Positions 2,931 to 15,958 of a stretch of DNA of 64,000 nucleotides are shown in pieces. Numbering within the stretch: the first letter of the stretch is position 1; every line of letters begins with the position of its first letter. The DNA comes from Escherichia phage ALITA, in the sequence record PP359570; one strand, given 5' to 3'. The notes beneath the pieces were generated by a model. That model was not told the origin of the DNA, did no database searches, and saw only the letters and a program-made list of their open reading frames with translations. Both the position numbers and the translations under genes were made by a program.

Positions 2931-4337
2931 ATGCCAGCACCAAAATCATGGGAACAATATAAAGAAGAATTAACACCCCTTGCTAAAAATCACAACATTC
3001 AGATTCTGGGTTATATTGGTGAATGGAAAGGGAGCAAGACTAAACTTAAGCTATCTTGCTCTGATCATGGGGAGTGGGAAAGTACCATAATCAATAGCTT
3101 TAAAACTAAAGGCGGTAAATGTTGCCCCGATTGCAATGGTCGTAGAAAAGTAACAGAAGAAAAGGAATGTATTTCCCTTGTTGATGTTGCTAAAGAAAGA
3201 GGGTTTACTTTTATAGGTCTTGCCGAAGAGTGGCGAGGTGTGCTAACAAAAATCCGCATAGTTTGCCCTAAACATGGAGAGTGGAACACCACGACCATTA
3301 GTGGTTTTAGGAAGGGACGTGGTTGTCCGGCATGTGCAAGTAATAAGCCGTTAACATGGGAAACAGAATTACCGATCTTGGAAGAGATAGCACAGAAGAA
3401 GGGGTATCAGGTGTTAGGGTACGTGGGAGAATGGAAAGGGATTGATACAAAACTTGATTTGTTGTGTCACTGTGGTAACAGATGGGATACTACAAGTATT
3501 AACAGTTTTAAACATGATCATGGTTGTCCTTTATGTGGGTATGAGAATACAAGGAAGGCACAAACAATACCCGACGATCAACATATTGCAGATTTCTTTT
3601 CTACAGGGAAATTTAAGGAAGGCACTATCTTTACCAATACAGGGAAACGTAGTTGTAGTAAAAACAAGGACATTATCTGGATGATCGAATGTCCTGTTTG
3701 CTCTCATGATGAGTATGTGCAAGCAGGTGTATGTGATGGTAAGTTTTATATGACACGTAGCGATCTTAAGGCTGGACACTTGCCCTGCCGCTGTGCAACT
3801 AACTCTCATTATACAGAAAATCAGATTACCTACAGGGTAAAAAAGGAAGTAGAAGGGAGAGGGTATGTCTGGGTAGGTTGGATCGGTAAACCGTCTATAA
3901 GACTGGGTAATTTTAAATATCTTTGTCTTGTTCATGGGGAACAAATTGGTAGTGCTTATCGCTTACTATATCAGGATAATGGTTGTCCACAATGTGCAGG
4001 TCATAGTCAGCAGCAATTGTATGTTAATGTTGTTAAAGATAATGGTATTATAGTTGCTCTTAAGTTTGGTATATCTAAAGATAGTGCTAGGAGATTAAAC
4101 ATTCAAAATAGGCGTAATATGTTTTTTATGGAGCGTATTTGTTTATATGATTTTAGTACAGTGAAGCAGTGTAAGGCTGCTGAAAGAGCTATAAAGAAAA
4201 AATTAAAAACTGGTATCTTAACAGCAAGAGAGTTGAAAGATGGTTATACAGAAACAGTAAGTGTTTCTGATTTGGAAAATCTTCAAAAAATTATTACACA
4301 ATATGGTGGCAAATTAGTATACAGTAAGGAGGTGTAA
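2931..4337 (+). CDS. multi-Zn-ribbon protein with C-terminal T5orf172/GIY-YIG-like domain (possible homing-type nuclease)
   Basis: 4-5 tandem ~50-aa repeats (xGYxGEWKGxxTKLxLxCxxHGEWxTTxxxF...GCPxC); C-terminus LKFGIS...ERAIKKKL resembles T5orf172. Confidence 0.55.
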   Translation: MPAPKSWEQYKEELTPLAKNHNIQILGYIGEWKGSKTKLKLSCSDHGEWESTIINSFKTKGGKCCPDCNGRRKVTEEKECISLVDVAKERGFTFIGLAEEWRGVLTKIRIVCPKHGEWNTTTISGFRKGRGCPACASNKPLTWETELPILEEIAQKKGYQVLGYVGEWKGIDTKLDLLCHCGNRWDTTSINSFKHDHGCPLCGYENTRKAQTIPDDQHIADFFSTGKFKEGTIFTNTGKRSCSKNKDIIWMIECPVCSHDEYVQAGVCDGKFYMTRSDLKAGHLPCRCATNSHYTENQITYRVKKEVEGRGYVWVGWIGKPSIRLGNFKYLCLVHGEQIGSAYRLLYQDNGCPQCAGHSQQQLYVNVVKDNGIIVALKFGISKDSARRLNIQNRRNMFFMERICLYDFSTVKQCKAAERAIKKKLKTGILTARELKDGYTETVSVSDLENLQKIITQYGGKLVYSKEV

Positions 4338-4889
4338 ATGCGGATTACTGATAAGTATGTGTTCTTCTTCTCGGCAAAAGATGAATTTAGCAACTGGTAT
4401 CTATCATCTTTTATTGAACCTTTAGCTCCCAAGTATAATAATTCTATTACAAGTTCTGTTGAATTTACTTGTGTGGAACAATATATGATGTGGAGAAAAG
4501 CATGTTTGTTTTATGATTACAGTATTGCATCTTCTATTTTAACCGGAGATCTAAGATATACAGGAGAAAAAGAACAAGCATATTATAAACGACTAGGCAG
4601 ATTAGTTAAAGATTATGATGAAGATACCTGGGCTTCTTTACGGGAGAAGATTGTCAAGCGTGGTTTGTATCTTAAATACACACAAAATGAAGATCTCAAA
4701 AATAAACTTATCGCTTACGCAGATAAGGAGTTCGTAGAGGCAAGCCCCTATGATTCTATTTATGGTATCAAAATGGGGATGTGGGATCGGGACGTGGAAA
4801 ATAAGGATTGTTGGAAAGGGCAAAATCTTTTAGGAAAATGGCATACAGACCTTGCTGTTTATCTAAAATCACAATCTGATATTTCCTGA
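4338..4889 (+). CDS. NADAR (YbiA/DUF1768) family protein
   Basis: VFFFSAKDEFSNWY and EFTCVEQYMMWRKA motifs typical of NADAR domain; start abuts previous stop. Confidence 0.75.
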   Translation: MRITDKYVFFFSAKDEFSNWYLSSFIEPLAPKYNNSITSSVEFTCVEQYMMWRKACLFYDYSIASSILTGDLRYTGEKEQAYYKRLGRLVKDYDEDTWASLREKIVKRGLYLKYTQNEDLKNKLIAYADKEFVEASPYDSIYGIKMGMWDRDVENKDCWKGQNLLGKWHTDLAVYLKSQSDIS

Positions 4890-5104
4890 TATTTTGAAAA
4901 TTTTTATTTTTATAAAAAGGGGTGTGGGTTTCATGTACGGAAATCCACCCTCTGAATAATATATCCAGAGTAAGTAGTATTCTGTACTCTGTTAATAAAG
5001 TATTTAATTTGTTTGTTGGATTATGGTGGCTGATCTTTAAAAGGCATACTATCTCTTAACTACTACTTATAACAAAACAGTAAAATCCTTTTTATAAAAG
5101 TACA

Positions 5105-5305
5105 AAATTATTTAAAGTTTTTACAGATTTTCGGGTACAAATTTTGAAAATGAAAAGTTCAAGTTTGGTCAAAATTATTTAAAGTTTTTGTACGTATTTC
5201 TGTCCAGATTTTGAAAATGAAAACTTCAATTTTTTAAAAATTCCCCAGTTTATTTAAAGTTTTTTTGCCTTTTTCCGTAGAAAAATCAAAAATGAAAAGT
5301 TCAAT
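5105..5305. repeat. three imperfect direct repeats (~67-75 bp iterons)
   Basis: Blocks TTATTTAAAGTTTTT (5108, 5175, 5249) and GAAAATGAAAAGTTCAA (5144, 5210, 5287) recur in the same order. Confidence 0.6.
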
Positions 5306-5327
5306 TTCGTGTTTTTATAGGTGTGTT

Positions 5328-5439
5328 AATGAGAATCATTTTCGTTTGTAAATGAGAATCATTATCATTTAACTATGTAAGTGATAATCATTCTCAGTAA
5401 GAGAATGAGAATCATTAGCAAATGAGAATTTTTCTCATT
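5328..5439. promoter_or_regulatory. array of five Fur-box-like operators (AATGAGAATCATT)
   Basis: 13-mers at 5328, 5351, 5380, 5404 and the perfect palindrome AATGAGAA-TTT-TTCTCATT at 5421-5439; the 19-mer ending at 5364 matches GATAATGATAATCATTATC at 16/19. Confidence 0.5.
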
Positions 5440-5674
5440 TACAGAATAACGCGCAGGGGCGGTGTTTGTCTCGCGCTCCCGTGTCCCCTCGCCATACAAT
5501 AAGAATAGCATAACCAATAACAAAAGCAAGCGATTATTTTTATCTTTACATTTCTTTACAAATTTATTTTAGACGAGCTACCGGCGATCAACCTTCCAAC
5601 CAGTGCCCCCTGGTATGTTAGCCCCGCCTTTACGCCGTGGGGTGGCGTTTCCTCTTCTGTATGTAAAACAGTAT

Positions 5675-5693
5675 AAGCCCGATCCCTGGGCTT
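5675..5693 (-). terminator. intrinsic terminator AAGCCC-N7-GGGCTT
   Basis: Hairpin 7 nt after stop of 5701..5967 on minus strand, followed by atactgtttt. Confidence 0.5.
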
Positions 5694-5700
5694 GTCAAGA

Positions 5701-5967
5701 TTATTTTTTGTTTTCTTGCCAGGATAGGACACCTAACCAAAAATACATGTCGCCCCGCGCCCCTGGTGGGATCTTGCTTTCCCCGCCGCCACTGCAAGCC
5801 CATAAATAACCATCAGCGAACGGATCAAAGTGATCTATCTCTTCCACCTTATGATCGCCCAGGTTGAGAACGGTTTCAACCTTTAAGCCCGTTGCGCTTG
5901 CTACCTGGTGCACCGTGCCGCCTTGCCAGCCCAGTGAGTGCATGAGATGTAAAGAAGTATTTGTCAT
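5701..5967 (-). CDS. hypothetical protein (only minus-strand gene of the island)
   Basis: 88-aa ORF with its own promoter/hairpin/purine leader upstream and a terminator downstream. Confidence 0.6.
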   Translation of the reverse strand: MTNTSLHLMHSLGWQGGTVHQVASATGLKVETVLNLGDHKVEEIDHFDPFADGYLWACSGGGESKIPPGARGDMYFWLGVLSWQENKK

Positions 5968-5989
5968 GGTATCGCCCTTTCTTTGTTGT

Positions 5990-6043
5990 GCGCCCTGGTT
6001 GGCGCGGTAGAAAGATGATAGCCGTTTCCTTCATATATAGCAA
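5990..6043 (-). promoter_or_regulatory. promoter + leader hairpin cassette (minus strand) for 5701..5967
   Basis: TTGCTA-N17-TATCAT, then GCGCC-AACCAG-GGCGC hairpin, then acaacaaagaaaggg leader before ATG. Confidence 0.5.
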
Positions 6044-6077
6044 GCAAAAAAGAAATGAAAAAAAGATTAAAAAATGG

Positions 6078-6106
6078 TTGACGTTCCTCACCTGGTAGCG
6101 TAGTAT
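6078..6106 (+). promoter_or_regulatory. sigma70-like promoter TTGACG-N17-TAGTAT
   Basis: Consensus-like hexamers, divergent from the minus-strand promoter at 6015-6043. Confidence 0.45.
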
Positions 6107-6233
6107 TCATCTTGTCGAGGGGGGCAAGACACAACGACAATAAACAATAGGCGGGTGCAATGCAAGACGGGCAAAGGTGAGGATCTCCACAATCCACCGT
6201 CACAATAACATTACTTATAAAAGGTTGATAACG

Positions 6234-6329
6234 ATGATCAAGAAAGAAAATAGCTTGACGGTTGGAACGATTAACGCTATCATTCTTGCCGTTCCATTTT
6301 GGATTGTAGTTGCGGTTATTATTTTCTAA
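6234..6329 (+). CDS. 31-aa hydrophobic peptide (hand-called)
   Basis: ATG..TAA, sequence MIKKENSLTVGTINAIILAVPFWIVVAVIIF; lies between promoters 6078 and 6340. Confidence 0.4.
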   Translation: MIKKENSLTVGTINAIILAVPFWIVVAVIIF

Positions 6330-6339
6330 AAAAATATTC

Positions 6340-6397
6340 TTGACAACGTTTTTTAATCTGATAAGATGTATCACATAGGGCGGCAATAGTGCCGCTC
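6340..6397 (+). promoter_or_regulatory. promoter/hairpin cassette C1 (serves 6420)
   Basis: TTGACA-N16-TAAGAT (TGn extended), cacATAG, hairpin GGCGGCA-ATAG-TGCCGC, leader cataacagaagagagaaataatc. Confidence 0.7.
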
Positions 6398-6419
6398 ATA
6401 ACAGAAGAGAGAAATAATC

Positions 6420-6692
6420 ATGGCATCATATAGCGCATCAATGATTGTAAAGGGTATCACTGGTAAACCTATGCGCGGTGGCGGATCTTTCGCTAACATC
6501 AATATTGATGGACGTTTATCCCTGGACGCAGCGATCACAGTGGCACGGGAAACATTTAAAAAAGAATGTAATTTCAATAAACAAGATTATCTCGGTTTTG
6601 CTATTGAAAAAACCGCGCGCTTTGTGGATTATAAAAGCCCGAAAATGATCGACACTACACTAAAAGCGCAAGATGTAGCGTTTTTGCTTTAA
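6420..6692 (+). CDS. hypothetical protein
   Basis: 90-aa ORF directly behind cassette C1. Confidence 0.7.
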   Translation: MASYSASMIVKGITGKPMRGGGSFANINIDGRLSLDAAITVARETFKKECNFNKQDYLGFAIEKTARFVDYKSPKMIDTTLKAQDVAFLL

Positions 6693-6705
6693 GACTTGAC
6701 ACTGA

Positions 6706-6756
6706 AAAATAATTTGATAATATATACCACATAAGGCGGGGAAATGGTTTCCCGCC
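6706..6756 (+). promoter_or_regulatory. promoter/hairpin cassette C2 (serves 6779)
   Basis: TTGACA-N16-TAATAT, hairpin GGCGGGGAAA-TGG-TTTCCCGCC, leader aaatcaaagaaaggg. Confidence 0.7.
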
Positions 6757-6778
6757 AAATCAAAGAAAGGGTAATGCA

Positions 6779-7141
6779 ATGAGCAAGCAAATCAATACTA
6801 TCATGTTTAATCTGGTATCTTTCCGCGATGACGTGAAAAACCTTTCGCGTGATGCAGTGGATGCACGGATCGAAAGCTATCGCACACAGATCGCAACGTT
6901 ACCGCTGAAACGTGATCAACATGCCGCTAATATGATGCTTGATGCTATGATTAAAAAGATGATTCAATGTGATCTTACCCTGGCTTATGAATATGCTGGC
7001 GATCTCTTTGTAACATATAGCAAGCCCGTTCCAGGTATGAGCACCACGGAAGAATTGCATGCCTTAAATCTGCGACAAGATGCATGGGATAACATGCGCC
7101 GTGTTATGGTATGGGTAGAAAGCGGTAAAATTTACGAATAA
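6779..7141 (+). CDS. hypothetical protein
   Basis: 120-aa ORF behind cassette C2. Confidence 0.7.
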   Translation: MSKQINTIMFNLVSFRDDVKNLSRDAVDARIESYRTQIATLPLKRDQHAANMMLDAMIKKMIQCDLTLAYEYAGDLFVTYSKPVPGMSTTEELHALNLRQDAWDNMRRVMVWVESGKIYE

Positions 7142-7147
7142 AAACGG

Positions 7148-7200
7148 TTGACATTGCACTAAAACCTGATAAGCTATCTTAAAGCGGGAATAGTTCCCGC
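7148..7200 (+). promoter_or_regulatory. promoter/hairpin cassette C3 (serves 7220)
   Basis: TTGACA-N16-TAAGCT, hairpin GCGGGAA-TAG-TTCCCGC. Confidence 0.65.
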
Positions 7201-7219
7201 TTACATAGGATAAAACTTT

Positions 7220-7366
7220 ATGAAACAATATGTAATGAGTATTCACACCAAAAACGGCGCTACTGTTACGACTCCGGCACGGTTTGCACTTGTAAACCGT
7301 TGCAAGAGACTAAAACGAGAGCTAAAAAACAACCGTGCAACGGGCTTTAAACGCTGGGGAGGATAA
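7220..7366 (+). CDS. 48-aa basic protein (hand-called)
   Basis: ATG 20 nt after hairpin C3; ends GGAGGATAA, which supplies the RBS for the next gene. Confidence 0.5.
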   Translation: MKQYVMSIHTKNGATVTTPARFALVNRCKRLKRELKNNRATGFKRWGG

Positions 7367-7368
7367 TC

Positions 7369-7629
7369 TTGTTTTTTCTAAAAGTTTTTGATAATGTGAT
7401 CGCTTTTGAACATGCTACAACGTTCGACCTGGCGAGATACGCTATCAGGTTTAAAGATAATGTTTATCCCCGTGCTGGCGGCGGTTACACTATTTTTAAT
7501 CATCGCAACGCGCAACTAACTGATATAACTAATCCAGATCCTGGAGTGTATCGGATAGGCTGGCTACCGTCAAAAGATGCGGCAAGCATGTTTAAGGTAT
7601 GTAAACTACTAACAGAAGAGGCGAACTAA
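7369..7629 (+). CDS. hypothetical protein (TTG start)
   Basis: 86-aa ORF, GGAGG 6 nt upstream of TTG. Confidence 0.55.
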   Translation: MFFLKVFDNVIAFEHATTFDLARYAIRFKDNVYPRAGGGYTIFNHRNAQLTDITNPDPGVYRIGWLPSKDAASMFKVCKLLTEEAN

Positions 7630-7630
7630 C

Positions 7631-8185
7631 ATGGGGCGTGAATATGTGATCCAGTCCTGGGTAAAGCATGATGCTAATGATCCGCGCATAATACCAGATG
7701 ACATGATCGATCACATGGTAGGGTATAGCGGGGAGCAGATAGGAAATCGAGCGGCAAAGAGCAACGGCAACACCAGGACGCGATCCGTTCGCCCTGGATG
7801 GCTGGCAAATGGTAACGCTGACATTGCAAGCGCCGCAGATCCAAGCGATGACGCTAAAAATAATCCCTTATACAGTATTGATCCGGCTTTTAAGGTGTTG
7901 GAAGAGTATCCCGCTAAATTAGCCGCACTAGATAAAGCATACGAAGAAAAACGGGTGGCATGGACTGTATACAACACCGCTAAAATGGTGCTAGATGCAA
8001 AATTGATTAAAGCCCAGGAGAAGATCAATAAACTTGTTACCATAGCGCAAGAGGAAGACCAGGACGACCAGGAGGAAGAGGAAGAAATCATGCCTAACCT
8101 GGAAGAGGAAGAGATCCAGCCATACACGCCGACAGAAGAGGAAAAAATACAAGCCTTAAAAAATTATAAAAATTGTATTGTGTAA
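7631..8185 (+). CDS. hypothetical protein with strongly acidic C-terminus
   Basis: 184-aa ORF, 1 nt after previous stop; tail QEEDQDDQEEEEEIMPNLEEEE. Confidence 0.65.
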   Translation: MGREYVIQSWVKHDANDPRIIPDDMIDHMVGYSGEQIGNRAAKSNGNTRTRSVRPGWLANGNADIASAADPSDDAKNNPLYSIDPAFKVLEEYPAKLAALDKAYEEKRVAWTVYNTAKMVLDAKLIKAQEKINKLVTIAQEEDQDDQEEEEEIMPNLEEEEIQPYTPTEEEKIQALKNYKNCIV

Positions 8186-8188
8186 GGC

Positions 8189-8245
8189 TTGACATATGCA
8201 AACAAGCCCCGTAATATGTACCACATAGAGCGGGGCAACCCCCTC
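8189..8245 (+). promoter_or_regulatory. orphan promoter/hairpin cassette C4 (no ORF behind it)
   Basis: TTGACA-N17-TAATAT, cacATAG, GAGCGGGG-CAA-CCCCCTC hairpin, aaaggtgaaataaaaatc leader runs straight into the next promoter. Confidence 0.55.
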
Positions 8246-8265
8246 AAAGGTGAAATAAAAATCAC

Positions 8266-8293
8266 TTGACAACTGAAATCAGTAAGCTATAAT
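8266..8293 (+). promoter_or_regulatory. sigma70-like promoter TTGACA-N16-TATAAT (serves 8331)
   Basis: Perfect consensus hexamers; no GC hairpin in this leader. Confidence 0.6.
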
Positions 8294-8330
8294 GCTTATA
8301 TAAATTAAAGCGTTACTAAGGAATAAAATC

Positions 8331-8696
8331 ATGGCTAAAAATATCAATGTTTCTGCTTATGCTACCCTGGCTAACACTGCTAAAATTGAACTATCCAGCA
8401 TTGAAGCGGTACATATTAGCGCCCGTCGCTGGTTTCAAAAGTCTTATGGTAATACTTATTTCTCTTTGATGGTTGACGTTGAGATCGGCGGTAAACTGAT
8501 TGAAGTCGTTAACGTTCCGTTTCAATATGGTTATGGTGATCATTTTGATACCGTTGCCCTAGAAGAGTTTAGCAAGGTTATCAACCTGGAAGGTAAAGAC
8601 TTTTCAAATTATGCTTACCTTTCCCGTTTTTGCCGTGATAATGGGATCGCTGTATACAGTCATGCAAGCGATGTTAAACGTAAAAAAGATTTATAA
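8331..8696 (+). CDS. hypothetical protein
   Basis: 121-aa ORF, AAGGA RBS. Confidence 0.7.
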   Translation: MAKNINVSAYATLANTAKIELSSIEAVHISARRWFQKSYGNTYFSLMVDVEIGGKLIEVVNVPFQYGYGDHFDTVALEEFSKVINLEGKDFSNYAYLSRFCRDNGIAVYSHASDVKRKKDL

Positions 8697-8702
8697 AAAG
8701 TA

Positions 8703-8766
8703 TTGACAGCACGAATAAAAAGCGTAAAATGTTTTATATCAGGACGGGGGAACGGTTTCCCCTCCT
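8703..8766 (+). promoter_or_regulatory. promoter/hairpin cassette C5 (serves 8786)
   Basis: TTGACA-N16-TAAAAT, hairpin AGGACGGGGGAA-CGG-TTTCCCCTCCT, leader taacaaagagagaaataaaa. Confidence 0.65.
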
Positions 8767-8785
8767 AACAAAGAGAGAAATAAAA

Positions 8786-8968
8786 ATGGCTAAATGCACT
8801 ATCTGTAAGAAAGAAATAGTATTAGTTCCAAGCGCCCGTGAACGTGCCGCTAAGTTTGGTGGCAAACCGTCAGACTATACAAAAATGTTCACTACCCATG
8901 CAGCTTGCCAGGTAGCGAAACGTTCACAAGAAAGCGTAGAATTAATGCGTAAACTTTCCAAAAAATAA
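8786..8968 (+). CDS. hypothetical Cys-containing small protein
   Basis: Start moved to MAKCTICKK because the longer ORF (8729) would read through the promoter and hairpin. Confidence 0.6.
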   Translation: MAKCTICKKEIVLVPSARERAAKFGGKPSDYTKMFTTHAACQVAKRSQESVELMRKLSKK

Positions 8969-8970
8969 TA

Positions 8971-9029
8971 TTGACAAAGTATTTTATTACTATATAATGG
9001 TTTACATCGAGAGCGGGAATAGTTCCCGC
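8971..9029 (+). promoter_or_regulatory. promoter/hairpin cassette C6 (serves 9054)
   Basis: TTGACA-N16-TATAAT, hairpin GCGGGAA-TAG-TTCCCGC. Confidence 0.7.
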
Positions 9030-9053
9030 CTCACTGAAAAAGAGATTAACATC

Positions 9054-9293
9054 ATGGCTAAATCTAAAATGTACAACGGTCACAAAAACAAAACTCATTG
9101 GAATGTAAGCCTTTGGATCAACAACGATGAAGGTTTTTATAATCTTGCGCGTGAATTTATCGCAGCTAACACCAATAAGAATGACGCAGCGCGGGATATG
9201 ATGTTATTTCTTGAAAGTATGGATCAAGATAAAACGCCAGACGGTTACAAGTTCAGTAAAACTGCAATCCGTGCCGCTATGGTTGGAATGTAA
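9054..9293 (+). CDS. hypothetical protein (HWNVSLWINNDE motif)
   Basis: Start at MAKSKMY downstream of the hairpin; 79 aa. Confidence 0.65.
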   Translation: MAKSKMYNGHKNKTHWNVSLWINNDEGFYNLAREFIAANTNKNDAARDMMLFLESMDQDKTPDGYKFSKTAIRAAMVGM

Positions 9294-9306
9294 AGGAGAC
9301 ATAAAA

Positions 9307-9387
9307 ATGAAACATCGTTCGACCTATCTGACAAAACGTTTTAGCTTAGATCATAAATTAGGCTATTACGGAAGAAATAGAAAATAA
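9307..9387 (+). CDS. 26-aa basic peptide (hand-called, weak)
   Basis: GGAGA RBS then ATG; fills the 9294-9388 gap. Confidence 0.3.
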   Translation: MKHRSTYLTKRFSLDHKLGYYGRNRK

Positions 9388-9388
9388 T

Positions 9389-9448
9389 TTGACAACGTTT
9401 AAAATTAGTGTAAGATGTATCACATAGGGCGGGAAATGGTTTCCCGCC
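9389..9448 (+). promoter_or_regulatory. promoter/hairpin cassette C7 (serves 9471)
   Basis: TTGACA-N16-TAAGAT, cacATAG, GGCGGGAAA-TGG-TTTCCCGCC, leader aaatcaaagaaagg. Confidence 0.7.
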
Positions 9449-9470
9449 AAATCAAAGAAAGGTTATCATT

Positions 9471-9698
9471 ATGGCTATCGTTATTGTTCGCGTATCCGGT
9501 ACGGTTGGGATCTCCCAGGTAGTAGCAGTTATCACCGAGAAGAAAGGAGATGATCTTCACTCCTCCTTGAATAGCTGGGCGGTCGCTAACTTTGGGCAAT
9601 GGTCGAGCGTTGAGTACATCGAATCCTACCAGGTGCCAACGATTAGCCTAACCGATCTAAATGTTGATCGCTTGTTGTGCCTGGATCAATTAAACTAA
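9471..9698 (+). CDS. hypothetical protein
   Basis: 75-aa ORF behind cassette C7. Confidence 0.65.
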   Translation: MAIVIVRVSGTVGISQVVAVITEKKGDDLHSSLNSWAVANFGQWSSVEYIESYQVPTISLTDLNVDRLLCLDQLN

Positions 9699-9706
9699 AA
9701 ATAATA

Positions 9707-9764
9707 TTGACAAGATAACTAAAATCAGTAAAATGTAATGCATAGGGCGGCAATAGTGCCGCTC
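9707..9764 (+). promoter_or_regulatory. promoter/hairpin cassette C8 (serves 9786)
   Basis: TTGACA-N16-TAAAAT, gcATAG, GGCGGCA-ATAG-TGCCGC. Confidence 0.7.
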
Positions 9765-9785
9765 CTAGTGAGAGAGATTATCAAG

Positions 9786-10001
9786 ATGGCTAATATCCGC
9801 ACACTGTTAAAAAATGCAAGTCAAGTTTTATTTTCAGATGACGAGTATTTCAACAAAGACATTACAGGCGTGAAAAATTTAAAAGACGTGAAGGATGTTA
9901 TCGGTATCCGTGGATCTTTACGTAAAGGTGACATATACGGTAACAAGGTGCAATATAAACTGTCAAAAGATTATGATTTTACTTTGACATTTATTTCATA
10001 A
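9786..10001 (+). CDS. hypothetical protein
   Basis: Start at MANIRTLL after the hairpin; 71 aa. Confidence 0.6.
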   Translation: MANIRTLLKNASQVLFSDDEYFNKDITGVKNLKDVKDVIGIRGSLRKGDIYGNKVQYKLSKDYDFTLTFIS

Positions 10002-10007
10002 AACCGC

Positions 10008-10068
10008 TTGCAATACTGCAAAAATAAAGTAAACTGTATTCATCAAGGCGGTGGAATAGCCCACCGCC
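10008..10068 (+). promoter_or_regulatory. promoter/hairpin cassette C9 (serves 10092)
   Basis: TTGCAA-N16-TAAACT, hairpin GGCGGTGG-AATAGC-CCACCGCC, leader taacaaagagaagagg. Confidence 0.6.
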
Positions 10069-10091
10069 TAACAAAGAGAAGAGGAAACATC

Positions 10092-10262
10092 ATGATCACT
10101 TTCGCTACCCGTGAAGCCGCTCGCAACGTTGCACGTAAAGTTAACGCCGCCAACCTGGGCGCTACGCTTAAAGCCCCGGTAAAAGATGAATCAGGTAAAT
10201 GGATCTTCCCTGGTCTGCGTCACGCTGATAAGCTGGGAACGTTAACGCTAAAAAATAAATAA
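10092..10262 (+). CDS. hypothetical protein (56 aa)
   Basis: Start at MITFATRE after the hairpin. Confidence 0.55.
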   Translation: MITFATREAARNVARKVNAANLGATLKAPVKDESGKWIFPGLRHADKLGTLTLKNK

Positions 10263-10269
10263 AATCCGC

Positions 10270-10328
10270 TTGACAGTAGCATCATTTATAAGTAAAGTAA
10301 CAACAACGGCGGGAAATGGTTTCCCGCC
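10270..10328 (+). promoter_or_regulatory. promoter/hairpin cassette C10 (serves 10349)
   Basis: TTGACA-N17-TAAAGT, GGCGGGAAA-TGG-TTTCCCGCC, leader atcaataaagagataagatc. Confidence 0.7.
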
Positions 10329-10348
10329 ATCAATAAAGAGATAAGATC

Positions 10349-10708
10349 ATGAAATCAGTAAAAGCAATTAAAACTTACATTGTGTCGGCTATTTCTTTTG
10401 ATGGTACTACAACCGAAAAAGAAAAGATCACCGAACTGATGCGCCGTTTTAACTCTGAATACTGGTATCCCGATAATCAAAAACGTTACAATTATAACGT
10501 GATCAAGGCAATAGCCTCATGGTTACAAGGTTTACCGTCAGAAATCAATATTGCTTTTGATTATAACGAGATCGATCACTTGTTAATTGAATGGAAGTAC
10601 ATAAAAGAAACAAGCAAAGAAACAACCGTTACCCGTGAGCGGGAAAATTATTGGTTATATATTGCAAGCATGATCGTAATCCTGGCAAAACAGCATAACG
10701 CGGCGTAA
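10349..10708 (+). CDS. hypothetical protein
   Basis: 119-aa ORF behind cassette C10. Confidence 0.7.
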   Translation: MKSVKAIKTYIVSAISFDGTTTEKEKITELMRRFNSEYWYPDNQKRYNYNVIKAIASWLQGLPSEINIAFDYNEIDHLLIEWKYIKETSKETTVTRERENYWLYIASMIVILAKQHNAA

Positions 10709-10723
10709 TTAAGAGGAAAAAAC

Positions 10724-10861
10724 ATGAACGCATCACAGCAGATCGAAAAATTCAACCGCAGCAAGGCGCGTAAAGATTGGAACGAAGAGATCACCAAAAA
10801 AGGCGACAAGCGGAACAAAACAAAAAGAGATCGCAGCACAAAAAGATACTGGAACGAATAA
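10724..10861 (+). CDS. 45-aa lysine/arginine-rich protein (hand-called)
   Basis: AAGAGGA RBS, ATG; ends 6 nt before the terminator. Confidence 0.45.
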   Translation: MNASQQIEKFNRSKARKDWNEEITKKGDKRNKTKRDRSTKRYWNE

Positions 10862-10867
10862 CAAAAA

Positions 10868-10888
10868 GGGCGCAATAAGCGCCCTTTT
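10868..10888 (+). terminator. intrinsic terminator GGGCGC-AATAA-GCGCCC + TTTT
   Basis: Perfect stem plus T-run; same design as 14803 and 15959. Confidence 0.65.
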
Positions 10889-10978
10889 AGCTTATATAGA
10901 GGCTTGTTACCCATAGGCAATGGTAACGCCAGGGCAAGCCTATAAATCAACGTTAGACGGCTTTACAGGAGCTTTAAA

Positions 10979-11161
10979 ATGAGATTAGAAGAAATAAGCA
11001 AGGCACTAGCCCAGGGGCAAAGGTTAAACGCCCGTTATCGTGATCAATATGGCTTCATAACTAGCGGCGTGATCCTGGGGATTGAAGGCAATAAGATTTT
11101 TATTGACACGTTGAAAAACGTTGTATATAGTGACAATATAATCTCAATAAAACATATATGA
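10979..11161 (+). CDS. hypothetical protein
   Basis: 60-aa ORF with AGGAG RBS. Confidence 0.55.
   Translation: MRLEEISKALAQGQRLNARYRDQYGFITSGVILGIEGNKIFIDTLKNVVYSDNIISIKHI
11103..11131 (+). promoter_or_regulatory. sigma70-like promoter TTGACA-N17-TATAGT (inside 3' end of previous gene)
   Basis: Consensus-like hexamers ~40 nt upstream of 11170. Confidence 0.45.
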
Positions 11162-11169
11162 GGCAAGAA

Positions 11170-11571
11170 ATGAAAAAATTATTGATCGCTGGTTTAATCT
11201 CTTTTGGCATGGTTGGAACATCTAGCGCGGCGATATCCTCCACAGTAGCAGAATTAAGCGCCGTTGATGCAATGGAAAACGTCATGCTTATTAATAATGC
11301 GATCCCCGATGAAATCATGGAGGATTCACACATGATCGCTTATGGTGCTGTTACACAACTAACGGCAAAAATAGATAAATCTATTGTTAATGGCTTAAAT
11401 GAAGATGTACCATGTGAAATTATTACCAGTGTGCTCACTACTCAAAATTTTACGCCGTGGTTAAAAAGTATTCAAAAAGTACACAGTACAGCCGCAGATC
11501 GTAGCAATGAAAAACTAGTGTCAGCACTTGCAACGTATACCCTAGCAAAATGCACTGAAATAAAAGATTGA
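11170..11571 (+). CDS. secreted protein (signal peptide)
   Basis: MKKLLIAGLISFGMVGTSSA-A signal-peptide-like N-terminus; start chosen at MKKLL. Confidence 0.65.
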   Translation: MKKLLIAGLISFGMVGTSSAAISSTVAELSAVDAMENVMLINNAIPDEIMEDSHMIAYGAVTQLTAKIDKSIVNGLNEDVPCEIITSVLTTQNFTPWLKSIQKVHSTAADRSNEKLVSALATYTLAKCTEIKD

Positions 11572-11596
11572 CAGCATAGAAAGCACGTTATAAGAT
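11568..11596 (+). promoter_or_regulatory. sigma70-like promoter TTGACA-N17-TAAGAT (serves 11619)
   Basis: Consensus hexamers, no hairpin; leader acacacaacaaaggag. Confidence 0.55.
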
Positions 11597-11618
11597 ACAC
11601 ACAACAAAGGAGAACTAC

Positions 11619-11921
11619 ATGAACGGCATAGCTAAAACGTTTTTTCTTTTTTCTGGTGTAAATGATCCATCAATAAAAGTCGATAGTGTAAAAGAAAACA
11701 ATACTATCACCGCTAAATTGTTTCAAGATGAAACAAATAACGTGCTAATCATTAATCTTAAAGAAATAACTAAAGGTTATTATACTATTGCTTACCATGC
11801 GATCTATCATGCTGGTACTAGCGAGGAAGTGCAAACAAGCAACAACGAAAGCGCGGCGCTACCTGGTGATCTGGTGCTGGGTGTTATTAGTTTAATTGTC
11901 AATGATTTTTTTAAGGAGTAA
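11619..11921 (+). CDS. hypothetical protein
   Basis: 100-aa ORF with AAGGAG RBS. Confidence 0.6.
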   Translation: MNGIAKTFFLFSGVNDPSIKVDSVKENNTITAKLFQDETNNVLIINLKEITKGYYTIAYHAIYHAGTSEEVQTSNNESAALPGDLVLGVISLIVNDFFKE

Positions 11922-11925
11922 AACC

Positions 11926-12021
11926 ATGCCCTATTTACATTTATTTTTCGGGATCTTATTGTCAGGATCTTTTTTCTTCTGTATGCTTGTTTCTATTGTA
12001 AACCACGTTTTAAGACATTAA
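11926..12021 (+). CDS. 31-aa hydrophobic peptide (hand-called)
   Basis: AAGGAG RBS in the end of the previous gene; MPYLHLFFGILLSGSFFFCMLVSIV. Confidence 0.4.
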   Translation: MPYLHLFFGILLSGSFFFCMLVSIVNHVLRH

Positions 12022-12030
12022 GGAAACAGC

Positions 12031-12150
12031 ATGAAAATTATTCCCGTACAATATAGCGTAATAAATCCAGCATATGAGGAAGGAAGGAAAACAAGCATGG
12101 CTTTATGTTGTATTGTTACTATAGCCATGTTGTTATATATTGTGTTTTAA
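12031..12150 (+). CDS. 39-aa peptide with C-terminal TM segment (hand-called)
   Basis: AAGGAAACAGC then ATG; ...MALCCIVTIAMLLYIVF. Confidence 0.4.
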   Translation: MKIIPVQYSVINPAYEEGRKTSMALCCIVTIAMLLYIVF

Positions 12151-12179
12151 TAGGTTTTATAGTTGTACGCTTTAAAGGC

Positions 12180-12231
12180 TTGACAATTTTTTGTTATGCT
12201 TTAAAATATATCTTGAAAACGGCAAAGGCCG
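12180..12231 (+). promoter_or_regulatory. promoter TTGACA-N16-TAAAAT + short CGGC-AAAG-GCCG hairpin (serves 12251)
   Basis: Consensus hexamers; degenerate version of the cassette hairpin. Confidence 0.5.
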
Positions 12232-12250
12232 CAAACAAAAGGGTAAAATT

Positions 12251-12574
12251 ATGAAATCTGTGATCGGTGTTTATTTGGATAACTCTGATTTTTTCTATCA
12301 TCGCGCGCGTTTACTTGATGCTATTGAAATGATAGAATCAGGCTTTAAAGAGTATCGCCTTGCACATGATGACCTGGAAGCATTACAGGGCAATAGTGTT
12401 TTTACATTGCAAGCGAAAGCACTATGCAAAAGCCGGATCGAGATTGCAAGTAAAAAGATAGAGCGCGGCATGTCCTGGTTACGCACCGCAGAAATCAACA
12501 TGGGGCAATGGTACGGCAAAAACTTAGAAAATAAACATGCTTTTGTAAATGTAGAAAATATTGAAGATTATTGA
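12251..12574 (+). CDS. hypothetical protein
   Basis: Start at MKSVIGVY downstream of the promoter; 107 aa. Confidence 0.6.
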   Translation: MKSVIGVYLDNSDFFYHRARLLDAIEMIESGFKEYRLAHDDLEALQGNSVFTLQAKALCKSRIEIASKKIERGMSWLRTAEINMGQWYGKNLENKHAFVNVENIEDY

Positions 12575-12636
12575 TTGACAGCACACCTGATAAGGAGTAT
12601 ATTGTATCTCATAGAGCGGGGAAATGGTTTCCCCGC
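12575..12636 (+). promoter_or_regulatory. promoter/hairpin cassette C15 (serves 12657)
   Basis: TTGACA-N17-TATATT, tcATAG, GCGGGGAAA-TGG-TTTCCCCGC, leader ttaacagaagagataagat. Confidence 0.7.
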
Positions 12637-12656
12637 CTTAACAGAAGAGATAAGAT

Positions 12657-12941
12657 ATGAAGATCACAAAAGCACTTTCCAACTATGCAGCACGTCGCGG
12701 ATTATGCTTATCCGTTGAAAACTTAGGGAAAGAAGATTTTTTGTGCTTTTGGGAGCTTGAGAATGATAATGAGTGGATCTTCTCTTATTCTATCTGCAAA
12801 GATCAAAATGGTTGCTTGTTAACCTGGCGCGGTAATATCTATCTACCGGAAGAAATCAAAGAAGAATTACCAGGCACGATCATGACTGAGAAACAGCTTA
12901 AGGAAGTGATTAATTTTGTAGGGCAAAACATTAAAAAATAA
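12657..12941 (+). CDS. hypothetical protein
   Basis: 94-aa ORF behind cassette C15. Confidence 0.7.
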   Translation: MKITKALSNYAARRGLCLSVENLGKEDFLCFWELENDNEWIFSYSICKDQNGCLLTWRGNIYLPEEIKEELPGTIMTEKQLKEVINFVGQNIKK

Positions 12942-12942
12942 T

Positions 12943-13001
12943 TTGACACTAGGCAAACAACGTAGTAAAGTTTATCACATAGGGCGGCAATAGTGCCGCT
13001 C
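12943..13001 (+). promoter_or_regulatory. promoter/hairpin cassette C16 (serves 13024)
   Basis: TTGACA-N17-TAAAGT; 54 nt from tatcacatag to ATG (12973-13026) are identical to 6369-6422. Confidence 0.7.
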
Positions 13002-13023
13002 ATAACAGAAGAGAGAAATAATC

Positions 13024-13194
13024 ATGATCCCAACTATGTTTTATGTATCGCGCAAAGGTCACAATATTTTTTGGTCTGAAGATTTAAATGAAGCCATGAC
13101 GTTTGCCCGTGATCGTGTTGCTATCGGTGGCGTTAATATTACCGTAACCGATGAAAACGGCATTGAATACTACAACGGCGACGATGAAGAGTAA
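13024..13194 (+). CDS. 56-aa hypothetical protein (hand-called)
   Basis: ATG at the end of the duplicated leader; MIPTMFYVSRKGHNIFW... Confidence 0.55.
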   Translation: MIPTMFYVSRKGHNIFWSEDLNEAMTFARDRVAIGGVNITVTDENGIEYYNGDDEE

Positions 13195-13201
13195 TTAATA
13201 A

Positions 13202-13223
13202 GGCGGGGGGAGTATTCCCCGCC
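13202..13223 (+). promoter_or_regulatory. leader hairpin without promoter (C17, serves 13243)
   Basis: GGCGGGG-GGAGTATT-CCCCGCC then atcaataaagagataaatc ATG; no TTGACA upstream. Confidence 0.5.
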
Positions 13224-13242
13224 ATCAATAAAGAGATAAATC

Positions 13243-13512
13243 ATGAAAATATCATTGGACGTTGCAATCAAGGCCATCGAATCCGGTTACACCCTGGTAA
13301 AAGATGATAAGGCTAAAACCGTGCACCACGTTAACAAGGAAACAGGCGAAAGCATGATCACATATAAAGCCGCCTACTTTCTCCAATCAGTAGCAGATCC
13401 GCGCGTACAACGCCAGGTTACGGCGGCTATTGCTAAAAAATTATGTGCTTTACAGGGTACAAGTTTTAACGAGATCGCCCCGTGTTTTGACTGGTCGAGC
13501 TTGAAAAAATAG
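13243..13512 (+). CDS. hypothetical protein
   Basis: 89-aa ORF behind hairpin C17. Confidence 0.7.
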   Translation: MKISLDVAIKAIESGYTLVKDDKAKTVHHVNKETGESMITYKAAYFLQSVADPRVQRQVTAAIAKKLCALQGTSFNEIAPCFDWSSLKK

Positions 13513-13513
13513 T

Positions 13514-13575
13514 TTGACAATACGCGGTTATCTGGTAAAGTGTACGACATAGGGCGGGGCAATAAGGCAACGCCC
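13514..13575 (+). promoter_or_regulatory. promoter/hairpin cassette C18 (serves 13594)
   Basis: TTGACA-N16-TAAAGT, acATAG, GGGCG...CGCCC stem with large loop. Confidence 0.6.
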
Positions 13576-13593
13576 ATTAATGAGGGTAGAATC

Positions 13594-13698
13594 ATGTTAG
13601 AGAAAATTTTCACGGTTGTAGTAGTGGGCCTGGCGTTATCGGTTGGAGTGGTTGCAACTATGGCTAACATGATCCTATCTTCCCACGGTATTGGATAA
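13594..13698 (+). CDS. 34-aa membrane peptide (hand-called)
   Basis: GAGGG RBS; MLEKIFTVVVVGLALSVGVVATMANMIL. Confidence 0.45.
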   Translation: MLEKIFTVVVVGLALSVGVVATMANMILSSHGIG

Positions 13699-13708
13699 GG
13701 TGAATCAA

Positions 13709-13924
13709 ATGATCACGAATAAGACAGGTAAAACGGAATTCTTGCGCGGCTTGCAAATAGGTAAACCTGAGATCTGGCATTGCACTAAATCCGCGCATAA
13801 TGAAATGAAAGATTTTACCGCTACTTTACAACGTGTTAAAATATCTATCACGCAGAAAAAAGCCTTGTTAGTAGTAGAAAACGAGATACCGCAAACCATT
13901 ATTATTGTCGAGCGTACAGCATGA
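13709..13924 (+). CDS. hypothetical protein
   Basis: ORF track starts at TTG 13691; ATG 13709 has better TAAGGTG spacing. Confidence 0.55.
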   Translation: MITNKTGKTEFLRGLQIGKPEIWHCTKSAHNEMKDFTATLQRVKISITQKKALLVVENEIPQTIIIVERTA

Positions 13925-14307
13925 AAACTGAAATCATTATTGAAATCATCAACGGTTATAAAGAAGCCTTTATTTTTGCTGAATCAGCCAGGGATCATGA
14001 AGGTAATTTTATAGATGACATGACTGATCATGAGTTTTCAGATCAAGCCCATCAGCGGATCATACATGACGTGGCGGCGTTTTGTGATGCCAATGATGCC
14101 GCTATCTCTGAGGCAATGAGCGACGGCGCTACAGCAAACCAGATCGGGAATGACTTACATTTCACCCGTAATGGTCACGGCGTAGGCTTTTGGGATCGCC
14201 CTGAAATATACACTACTAACACCGCCAACCGACTAACAAATGCAGCTAAATTAATGCCATCGGTGCATGCTTACATTGGTGAAGATAATTTGATTTATAT
14301 TGAATAA
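13921..14307 (+). CDS. hypothetical protein (RNGHGVGFWD motif)
   Basis: 128-aa ORF, ATGA overlap with the previous gene. Confidence 0.7.
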   Translation: MKTEIIIEIINGYKEAFIFAESARDHEGNFIDDMTDHEFSDQAHQRIIHDVAAFCDANDAAISEAMSDGATANQIGNDLHFTRNGHGVGFWDRPEIYTTNTANRLTNAAKLMPSVHAYIGEDNLIYIE

Positions 14308-14313
14308 AAAGTA

Positions 14314-14372
14314 TTGACACCGATCCCCAATATGGTATGATTTACCACGTAGGCGGGAAATGGTTTCCCGCC
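14314..14372 (+). promoter_or_regulatory. promoter/hairpin cassette C19 (serves 14396)
   Basis: TTGACA-N16-TATGAT (TGn extended), cacGTAG, GGCGGGAAA-TGG-TTTCCCGCC. Confidence 0.7.
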
Positions 14373-14395
14373 AGGTAATCAAAAAGGTAAATACT

Positions 14396-14785
14396 ATGCG
14401 CAACCTGGTTTCTGTTTCTAACGTTGAAAAATTCCAATCTTTACAGGGTATCGTTAACAACGTAGCGCCTTTTTTAGTCAATGGCTTGATTGCAAAGATG
14501 AAAAATAAACATCATGCGGCATGGTCTGCTTACTGCTTTGATAATGATGAAAAAGCGGCTGAAATGATGTTAGATATGCTGTTAGATAGTGTAGAAACAT
14601 CTTTACCGGAAAACATCGCAGAAGAGATCACCTATCGTTATAATATGGCGATCACTTACCAGGAGGTTGCGCAATTTAATATGATGGATGATGACGAACA
14701 ACAGGATCAGGAAATGTTCTGGGAGTATGCAGATCGTCAATCGGCTTTTGATGAAAAGTTAGCGATGTATTATAACGAATATTAA
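14396..14785 (+). CDS. hypothetical acidic protein
   Basis: Start at MRNLVSV after the hairpin; 129 aa. Confidence 0.6.
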   Translation: MRNLVSVSNVEKFQSLQGIVNNVAPFLVNGLIAKMKNKHHAAWSAYCFDNDEKAAEMMLDMLLDSVETSLPENIAEEITYRYNMAITYQEVAQFNMMDDDEQQDQEMFWEYADRQSAFDEKLAMYYNEY

Positions 14786-14802
14786 TACACGGTAAAAGAA
14801 AG

Positions 14803-14826
14803 GGGCGCACTAAGCGCCCTTTTTTG
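14803..14826 (+). terminator. intrinsic terminator GGGCGC-ACTAA-GCGCCC + T6
   Basis: Perfect stem plus tttttt. Confidence 0.7.
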
Positions 14827-15170
14827 TATTCTTTTTTCACGATGGAAACAACACGTAAAGAATAGGCGTAAAGGTGGCGTAAAACAGCCTAAAACCGATT
14901 ATAACCGCTTAAACAAGGTAATAATGACTAATCACCTTGCCAGGATGAAAAAGCTGTTATAAAGCTATTTAGAGCGTTTAAAGCACATAGGAAATAATTT
15001 GCTTTTTATCTTGCCTTTTATCCTGCTTTTGATTATTATTATGGAACGGGCGGCACCTGGGGACAGGGGAAGATAATCACCGGAAGATCCCGCTATATAT
15101 TAATAGCTAATACCTATCAAACAACAAAACATCAAAGGAATAAACTATCAAATCTTTACAATCCTACCTA

Positions 15171-15231
15171 TTGACACAGGATCACCCTTATACTAATATG
15201 TATCCCGTAGGGCGGGAAATGGTTTCCCGCT
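15171..15231 (+). promoter_or_regulatory. promoter/hairpin cassette C20 (serves 15250)
   Basis: TTGACA-N17-TAATAT, ccGTAG, GGCGGGAAA-TGG-TTTCCCGC. Confidence 0.7.
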
Positions 15232-15249
15232 TGATATAGGAATCATACC

Positions 15250-15483
15250 ATGATCGAACAAATTAAAAGCACTACACCAAATGTTAACGGCAATGTTTCA
15301 CACTTTATCGGTGATAATGAAAGGGGCACACCATACGCCGCCGTAACCGTGCAACCTAATGGCGATTATTGGTTTACCGTGTACGGATCATACTCTTTCG
15401 GACGCCCGGCACATGATAAGATCTTGCAAGCGGTTAAACCTGCGGGGAAGAATATCACAGCAGAAAAATTTTATAAAAAATAG
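15250..15483 (+). CDS. hypothetical protein
   Basis: 77-aa ORF behind cassette C20. Confidence 0.7.
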   Translation: MIEQIKSTTPNVNGNVSHFIGDNERGTPYAAVTVQPNGDYWFTVYGSYSFGRPAHDKILQAVKPAGKNITAEKFYKK

Positions 15484-15484
15484 C

Positions 15485-15513
15485 TTGCTTTATTTCTTCT
15501 GTTAACTTATAGT
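15485..15513 (+). promoter_or_regulatory. promoter TTGCTT-N17-TATAGT with degenerate cassette remnant (gcGTAGGGC, no stem)
   Basis: Hexamers plus a conserved GTAGGGC word, but the palindrome is lost. Confidence 0.45.
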
Positions 15514-15942: not shown

Positions 15943-15958
15943 ATAACATTTCACACCA

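Follow-up and report, generated by a model that had tools for sequence, protein, structure and literature searches.

The window analysed here, a 64-kb stretch of the genome of Escherichia phage ALITA (sequence record PP359570), contains two identical copies of a 54-nt leader, TATCACATAGGGCGGCAATAGTGCCGCTCATAACAGAAGAGAGAAATAATCATG, at positions 6369-6422 and 12973-13026, each placed directly in front of a different small gene. Comparison with related phages identified this repeat as a very recent leader-to-leader conversion within a real family of expression cassettes resembling the promoter-early stem-loop cassettes (PeSLs) of T4-type phages, found here in a non-T4 coliphage. The architecture of the cassettes, their paralogy, the conversion series at one of the two loci and the association of structural breakpoints with cassettes were established by these comparisons. 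We consider it fairly probable that the overall explanation combines a leader copied by conversion, cassettes that act as recombination joints and a role of the leader hairpin as a 5' stem-loop.

The 54-nt repeat and its history in related phages

The exact duplication had been proposed in a first-pass annotation made from the nucleotide sequence, and an exact-repeat search confirmed it with 0 mismatches at both sites. No further site was found in the window at up to 3 mismatches, the number of matches expected by chance for a 54-mer was 0 (100 shuffles), and the 54-mer was the longest exact direct repeat of the window (20-nt seed). At the 5' limit of identity, TAAGATG in copy 1 stands against TAAAGTT in copy 2, and the promoters at 6340-6367 and 12943-12971 differ in their spacers and -10 regions; at the 3' limit, the copies part directly behind the ATG. 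The 90-aa and 56-aa open reading frames (ORFs) that follow gave zero BLASTP alignments at E<=100 and belong to separate families of unknown function, PHROG 8099 and PHROG 20874, bearing out the unrelated genes described in the annotation. The shorter common blocks that it listed were also exact, with a 30-mer at 6741 and 9433 and a 21-mer at 10324 and 13219, and a third, diverged copy of the hairpin leader was located at 9729-9789 (70% over 61 nt). Its reading of the repeat as a transcript start, hairpin, ribosome-binding site (RBS) and ATG is consistent with the sequence, in which a TTGACA/TAAGAT promoter ends at 6367 and a hairpin follows at 6378-6397. AT-rich stretches with stop codons lie 5' of the -35 elements (TTTTCTAAAAAAATATTC-TTGACA at 6322-6345; AAAAAATAATTTGACA at 12933-12948).

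Over 5500-14500 the window was 94.8-97.4% identical to Justusliebigvirus phages, with inny as the best match (97.4%), followed by Paula (96.8%) and PaulScherrer (94.8%); phi92 and alia are likewise members of Justusliebigvirus. The closest genomes belong to Justusliebigvirus within the Stephanstirmvirinae and are not T4-type, and by sequence identity the source is a phi92-like coliphage of Justusliebigvirus. Across 8/8 genomes (the window, Paula, phi92, inny, PaulScherrer, alia, KKP3264 and KKE7M), copy 1, which leads the gp226 homologue, showed no variation. It was >=99% identical in 35 of the 52 matching phage records and exact in at least 28 among the matches listed. The promoter at 6340 was conserved in Paula, inny, PaulScherrer, alia, KKP3264 and KKE7M.

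The leader of the 56-aa gene (copy 2) was found as four alleles behind homologous promoters (up to 4 bases apart, in the ukendt spacer). To describe them, two main hairpin types are distinguished: type A, GGGCGGCA-ATAG-TGCCGCTC, which is present in the 54-mer, and type B, GGCGGGAAA-TGG-TTTCCCGCC. Allele 1, in the outgroup phage ukendt (Phapecoctavirus), has the hairpin GGGCGGCGGAATGGTCCACCGCTC, then ACAACAGAAGAGAAACAAATC. Allele 2, in Paula, alia and KKE7M, has a type-B hairpin and a 3' part like that of ukendt, with single-base variants in alia and KKE7M. Allele 3, in inny, PaulScherrer, KKP3264, VEcB, phiWec187 and muut, has the type-A hairpin and CATAAC but ends in ...GAGAAACAAATC before the ATG, and 42 nt of it are identical to the gp226 leader. 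Allele 4, seen only in the window, is the same as the gp226 leader up to the ATG. All window-specific differences from allele 3 (3/3) are toward the gp226 sequence, and their surroundings are collinear at ~97-98% identity. The junction that characterizes the window's 56-aa leader was present in 0 of 50,697 phage genomes, in which the best full-length match was allele 3 at 95.1% and the best match to the full 271-nt region reached 97.8%. A search of IMG/VR also gave 0 matches to the junction, although its controls retrieved only one related contig and it therefore carries little weight; the GenBank phage set, unlike IMG/VR, is the informative negative for the window's allele.

The simplest reading of this allele series is that the repeat resulted from short-patch gene conversion in two steps, the gp226 leader being the donor and the 56-aa leader the recipient. 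In the first step, the hairpin and CATAAC would have been converted, giving the 42-nt identity common to the sub-clade; in the second, conversion of the RBS as far as the ATG would have extended it to 54 nt, a state private to the ALITA genome. The gp226 leader is the likely donor because it is invariant in the eight genomes. Judged by the distribution of alleles, only the last ~12 nt of the repeat are recent, and the 42-nt identity is older. The annotation had concluded that the regulatory module alone was recently copied. The occurrence of four leader alleles on the same gene, the window's own being absent from the database, supports copying of the leader alone, but the recent part is limited to ~12 nt and the process suggested is conversion between existing cassettes, not insertion of a module.

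That the repeat is due to duplication of a segment or gene, to chance or to faulty assembly has a probability close to negligible. Exact repeats can stem from mis-assembly, and the copy-2 allele of the window is without a counterpart in database genomes. Against this, identity halts exactly at the ATG of genes encoding unrelated proteins, and the chance expectation is zero. Moreover, many relatives sequenced independently have both loci with their genes in synteny and already share 42 nt of the repeat, and the three private differences fall within 5 nt of an otherwise collinear region. Gene duplication was ruled out by the empty BLASTP comparison and the separate PHROG families, and the duplication and chance readings are both refuted.

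Database matches to the leader at 97.8% identity included MG065639, MG065645, MG065656 and MG065689, labelled 'Campylobacter phage', and MT119359, labelled 'Enterococcus phage heks'. The four 'Campylobacter phage' records also contain the whole 56-aa gene region (94.5%), and all five records, which carry a coliphage leader, are probably mislabelled or contaminated.

The cassette array and gene exchange at the cassettes

Both copies are part of an array of 15 promoter-bearing units and one promoter-less hairpin with RBS (13198-13242), arranged head-to-tail on the + strand from ~6.3 to 15.3 kb, so that almost every ORF has such a unit on its 5' side (Table 1). Each unit opens with an AT-rich stretch in which the stop codon of the preceding gene lies; then come TTGACA, 16-17 nt of spacer and TAnnnT, followed by ~10 nt (consensus GTAyCACATAG), a GC hairpin of 7-11 bp, a purine-rich RBS and ATG. 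On the + strand of the array, 20 promoter sites scored >=10/12. In the window cassettes the core GC stem ends 18-22 nt before the ATG, the interval being purine-rich and unpaired, and in most of them it begins ~9-12 nt past the -10 (6 nt in the cassette at 7148); the minimum free energy (MFE) fold extends the core stem outward in five. The window and 14 related loci together yielded 110 detected cassettes, among which 23 different hairpins occur; in 94 of these cassettes the stem begins at an offset of 9-12 nt from the -10, and in the remainder at 6 or 13-14 nt.

The gene content of the array varies among 7 close relatives. A PHROG search with ten array ORFs placed nine in families of unknown function and gave no match for the tenth, and Pfam returned zero matches at threshold for the array ORFs tested. 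The last array gene, 15559-15942, matched Pfam Phage_30_8 (T4 gp30.8 family, E = 8e-29) and is one of few array genes with a family assignment. In some annotations the ORF of the 56-aa type starts inside the leader, giving 201 instead of 171 bp (inny_213, L003 9689-9889; muut_129, L010 1564-1764). The longest ORF for the gp234 homologue in the window, 9738-10001, has its start ATG within the motif equivalent to CACATAG. From their positions, all three starts look like mis-calls caused by the leader. Ahead of the array, the non-coding region 5089-5440 comprises three tandem repeats of ~67-75 nt (5089-5308), then a series of palindromic boxes of the AATGAGAATCATT type, further copies of which lie past the far end of the array (16188-16213, 17116-17154 and 17313-17349). 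The equivalent of this region is annotated as repeat_region in inny, and its layout resembles that of an origin or operator.

Table 1. Coordinates of the 54-nt repeat, its flanking elements and the cassette array in the window
Feature	Position	Strand	Details
Cassette array, ~16 promoter/GC-hairpin/RBS units with small ORFs	6340..15252	+	
-35 starts, first eight	6340, 6696, 7148, 8189, 8703, 8971, 9389, 9707	+	
-35 starts, remaining seven	10008, 10270, 12575, 12943, 13514, 14314, 15171	+	
Predicted copy-1 promoter (cassette 1), sigma-70-type, early	6340..6367	+	-35 TTGACA 6340-6345; 16-nt spacer; -10 TAAGAT 6362-6367; TG preceding the -10
54-mer copy 1, leader of the gp226 homologue	6369..6422	+	Likely donor; predicted start A6373 or A6375
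Type-A hairpin GGGCGGCA-ATAG-TGCCGCTC	6378..6397	+	8 bp; tetraloop; T-run absent 3' of it
Purine-rich unpaired ribosome-binding tract AGAAGAGAGAAATAATC	6403..6419	+	Unpaired in MFE and centroid folds; RBS annotated here in phi92
90-aa ORF, phi92 gp226 homologue	6420..6692	+	PHROG 8099; function unknown
Third type-A cassette, 5' of the gp234 homologue (71 aa)	9707..9788	+	Hairpin 9745-9764
Predicted copy-2 promoter (cassette 12), sigma-70-type	12943..12971	+	TTGACA; 17 nt; TAAAGT
54-mer copy 2, leader of the 56-aa gene	12973..13026	+	Putative conversion recipient; hairpin 12982-13001
Window differences from allele 3	13015..13019	+	1-nt indel at 13015; substitutions at 13018 and 13019
56-aa ORF, phAPEC8_009-like	13024..13194	+	PHROG 20874; function unknown; not homologous to gp226
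Module presence/absence junction AAAAAATAGTTTGACAA (stop / AT-rich / -35)	13504..13520	+	Single-copy in the window
Array terminators AAAGGGCGCnnTAAGCGCCCTTTT	10864-10888, 14797-14825, 15955-15979	mostly bidirectional	GGGCGC..GCGCCC stem; flanking T-runs

Alignments of the window with its relatives identified the cassettes as joints for gene gain, loss and swap. The clearest case is that of phi92. In KKP3264, the 56-aa cassette (promoter type P12943, hairpin A) is followed 568 bp downstream by the gp243 cassette, which has a different promoter and hairpin A. In phi92, P12943 is fused to the gp243 leader and gene, and the two intervening genes are absent. The crossover lies within a common 23-nt sequence, TAGGGCGGCAATAGTGCCGCTCA, that is, inside hairpin A, and KKP3264 has both parental cassettes. 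An extra 259-bp gp243 promoter-hairpin-gene module in KKP3264, Paula and alia is flanked by the 17-nt AAAAAATAGTTTGACAA, the two copies of which start 276 nt apart. In Paula, the window gene 8786-8968 is absent and a hybrid promoter has the -35 and spacer of cassette 8703 joined to the -10 and leader of cassette 8971. Relatives contain an additional 59-aa gene joined at ATGGCTA (window position 8331). In more distant phages, promoters and hairpins are swapped on the same genes: the 56-aa gene stands behind a P6340-type promoter in EF1-1 and a P9389-type promoter in NHEP1 (Vequintavirus), and gp226 stands behind a type-B leader in WPEC4.

Structural breakpoints were scored as indels or replacements between the window and seven relatives. 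They fell inside cassettes in 12 of 20 cases, against a cassette coverage of 15.2% of 6300-15300 (binomial p = 6e-6, a value that is indicative only, the breakpoints being ends of BLAST alignments in non-independent comparisons with 7 related genomes), and a further 3/20 were <=16 nt from a cassette. Junctions resolved to the base fell in various parts of the cassettes: -35, spacer/-10, hairpin and ATG. The cassettes are alike enough to recombine among themselves, and the exchanges at these joints are proposed to survive selection because each promoter-leader would be portable.

The annotation had regarded the perfect repeats as substrates for deletion or circle formation. By analogy within the clade this is supported: the phi92 crossover, between two further copies of this hairpin type, is an event of the sort foreseen, and cassettes contain more breakpoints than their coverage would give. 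In the database, however, neither a deletion nor a circle that joins the two 54-mers was found. For the 6.6-kb deletion, a chimeric query (P6340, the 54-mer and the 56-aa gene) was covered >=80% in one place by none of the 50,697 phage records. Partial matches in EF1-1 and NHEP1 were the promoter-swap alleles at the usual locus, not deletions. The reciprocal (circle or duplication) junction of the two 54-mers had no contiguous example among the same genomes. WPEC6 covered 99% of that query at 88% identity but in two non-contiguous pieces over ~920 bp, and was rejected, as were WPEC4 and phiWec188/190, whose single-piece partial matches represent the gp226 homologue with a type-B leader.

An alternative to homogenization by conversion only is that CACATAGGGCGG and the hairpin form a specific recognition site, the identity of leaders being held by selection for binding, either of an RNA-binding regulator from phage or host (such as a translational repressor or a processing nuclease) under whose joint control the early mRNAs would stand, or of a DNA-binding or DNA-cleaving protein that promotes exchange. 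This idea, also raised by the authors of the PeSL studies, agrees with the observation that conservation is higher in the ~11 nt between -10 and stem, and in the outer stem (GGGCGG/CCGCTC), than in the promoter spacers, and with the small repertoire of hairpins, the 110 cassettes having just two main types whose loop is fixed (TGG in one, ATAG in the other). We nevertheless regard it as quite unlikely. One gene functions with at least four hairpin alleles in related phages, arguing that no single sequence is required, and conversion, which is directly visible here, accounts for the homogeneity. In addition, no recombinase or known RNA-binding regulator was identified adjoining the array, where the neighbours carry CapR-repeat and NADAR domains, and no Rfam match was obtained. 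A stronger form of this proposal, in which a phage-encoded protein, be it a structure-specific nuclease or recombinase that acts on DNA or an RNA-binding regulator, recognises CACATAGGGCGG plus hairpin and actively drives cassette conversion and exchange, we hold to be improbable; if true, the early region would be an integron-like gene-cassette system in a virulent phage. The 468-aa protein encoded at 2931-4337, next to the array on its 5' side, combines four CapR-homology domains with DUF723 and is called 'endonuclease' in relatives; the next ORF, 4338-4889, encodes a NADAR (YbiA-like) domain protein.

The Rfam search covered 4800-16500 at the gathering threshold and returned two sub-threshold matches, judged to be due to chance; that over copy 2, to the L2-Alphaproteobacteria leader, scored 20.8 bits, the cut-off being 37.8. 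Twenty leaders were aligned with MAFFT, which does not take structure into account, and stems were tabulated directly instead. Covariation support for an RNA structure was weak, there being essentially two stem families.

Possible roles of the leader hairpin

The 67-nt leader folded at -16.6 kcal/mol, and 1 of 200 shuffled sequences folded equally well. Ahead of both coding sequences, the hairpin folded independently and the RBS tract was single-stranded. 5'-terminal stem-loops with few unpaired 5' nucleotides stabilise E. coli mRNAs, for example in the ompA 5' untranslated region (UTR) and the T7 gene 10 leader. From the sequence and by analogy with these leaders, we infer that the hairpin may be a 5' mRNA-stabilising stem-loop. 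Host sigma-70 RNA polymerase would use the promoters early in infection, with predicted starts at A6373 or A6375 for copy 1 and at A12977 or A12979 for copy 2. A start 6-8 nt past the -10 would place the hairpin 3-5 nt from the mRNA 5' end, where it could shield early mRNAs from 5'-end-dependent RNase E/RppH decay. It may also insulate a standard, open RBS from the coding sequence that follows, with the unstructured purine tract providing a context-independent ribosome-binding site. Each promoter-leader would then be a portable expression unit, functional before a new gene. A resemblance of CACATAGGG to the T7 promoter core CACTATAGGG was judged coincidental, given perfect sigma-70 hexamers at the right spacing.

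The hairpins could instead be terminators or attenuators that halt or damp read-through from upstream and isolate each small gene transcriptionally, in which case the 54-mer would be a common promoter-proximal terminator with an RBS. The PeSL papers assign this role to PeSL stem-loops, and one RB49 stem-loop lowered lacZ expression as much as rrnB T1 (PMC2839356). The ALITA hairpins are moreover intergenic and GC-rich, one of them (13198-13224) lies between two genes without a promoter, and the automated annotation of Paula labels several leader hairpins as terminators. On the + strand, however, T/U-runs are absent 3' of the hairpins (CATAACAG, CAAATCAA and CATCAATA) and none of the leader hairpins was called by a terminator scan. 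The labels in Paula are on the opposite strand, on which the scan called two leader hairpins in the window. A terminator located 3' of its own promoter would also stop its own transcripts. With the U-tract missing and the hairpin behind its own promoter, a terminator or attenuator fits poorly; it is possible, but we consider it unlikely. The array does contain terminators that, by stem and flanking T-runs, are distinct from the leader hairpins (Table 1); the + strand scan called those at 14797 and 15958, and that at 10864 was called on the - strand only.

Two other hairpin elements were observed in the window. An intrinsic-terminator-like hairpin, AAACCCGCTTCGGCGGGTTTTCTTGTAT, forms an exact 28-nt duplicate at 2873-2900 and 27831-27858, 25 kb apart. 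Consensus promoters on the minus strand at ~55338, 51800, 49602, 37951 and 30037 are each followed by a different hairpin, then RBS and ATG, with a T-run behind the hairpin at 55338, 37951 and 30037; from this layout they may be composite promoter-terminator units of another type.

Besides the indicative standing of the breakpoint statistic, several points weigh against the explanation of the repeat and its cassettes by conversion, recombination joints and a stabilising 5' stem-loop. The direction of conversion was deduced from the invariance of the donor and not from a rooted phylogeny, and the 3-5-nt distance of the hairpin from the 5' end rests on the usual -10-to-+1 spacing, from which the start is predicted. 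The hairpin and RBS at 13198-13242 are promoter-less and cannot head a primary transcript, which argues that the hairpin is not only a 5' structure of such transcripts. The low diversity of the hairpins, with two main types and conserved loops, fits either conversion or recognition by a protein. Finally, the RB49 stem-loop acted as a strong terminator in the reporter assay (PMC2839356), and an attenuator role is possible as far as sequence can tell. The element at 13198-13242, a GC hairpin and RBS between the 56-aa gene and ORF 13243, has the 21-mer CCGCCATCAATAAAGAGATAA in common with cassette 10270 and may be a cassette minus its promoter.

Relation to PeSLs and other modular systems

No paper on such cassettes or on transcript starts in Stephanstirmvirinae or Vequintavirinae was found in the literature, the rV5 genome paper giving lists of promoters and terminators only. 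The one-locus allele series shows that promoter, hairpin and RBS are replaced separately, in conversion tracts of ~10-40 nt, which is finer than earlier descriptions. Self-contained expression cassettes doubling as recombination joints are not limited to T4-type phages: in phi92/rV5-like phages, common isolates in work on therapy and biocontrol, they likewise shape the accessory early genes. They offer a testable model of how such phages gain, lose and re-wire small host-takeover genes. In practical terms, annotations wrongly label leader hairpins as terminators, the leaders could serve as portable expression parts, and the repeats predict low-frequency deletions in production lysates.

In the ompA 5' UTR and the T7 gene 10/phi10 leader, as in ALITA, a stable hairpin near the 5' end (predicted in ALITA) is followed by an unstructured spacer and an RBS, and the unit is portable between coding sequences. 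ALITA differs in having ~16 paralogous leaders in one genome, with predicted 5' ends, and, in comparison with T7 gene 10, in placing them under host sigma-70 promoters and not under a phage RNA polymerase. The linkers of lambdoid and other mosaic phages (modular theory, PMC2839356) are likewise short conserved intergenic crossover points at which modules are exchanged intact, whereas the ALITA linker is a complete expression signal and occurs in many copies per genome, allowing intragenomic conversion and deletion in addition to exchange between phages. The array also resembles integron attC systems, with small single-gene units separated by imperfect palindromes, and circular cassette intermediates have been proposed for PeSLs. 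No integrase or site-specific recombinase was found in the ALITA case, however, each unit has its own promoter, and the junctions are at varied points (-35, spacer, hairpin and ATG), as homologous recombination, unlike the use of one fixed site, would be expected to leave them.

The closest counterparts are PeSLs, described in the T4-type phages RB49/phi1, T4/PST and KVP40/nt-1 (Arbiol et al., 2010, PMC2839356; Comeau et al., 2014, PMC4122927), a concept restricted in these papers to T4-like phages. With them the ALITA cassettes have in common an AT-rich stop region, a near-consensus sigma-70 promoter, a G-run/C-run stem-loop, a Shine-Dalgarno sequence and ATG. The two further agree in being grouped in a plastic region rich in small ORFs without known function, in having the breakpoints of indels and replacements between close relatives within cassettes, including the stretch from -10 to ATG, and in repeats of tens of bases usable for homologous exchange. 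Of the PeSL features, the T4-type host is lacking, ALITA belonging to the Stephanstirmvirinae; we treat the host as a matter of scope, not mechanism, and call the cassettes 'PeSL-like'. Three further differences concern the stem-loop and its exchange. In RB49/phi1 its place varies among five positions, most of which overlap the promoter hexamers or lie between them, whereas in ALITA it is near-fixed, usually 9-12 nt past the -10 and within the predicted transcript, close to the published subclass 'downstream of the -10' but past the predicted start. The ALITA hairpins are without a U-tract, which makes a terminator function doubtful, and the clade visibly exchanges promoter, hairpin and RBS separately via short conversion tracts. 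The novelty is thus modest: the ALITA array is not a new kind of system but extends a known concept, in finer detail, to a new lineage.

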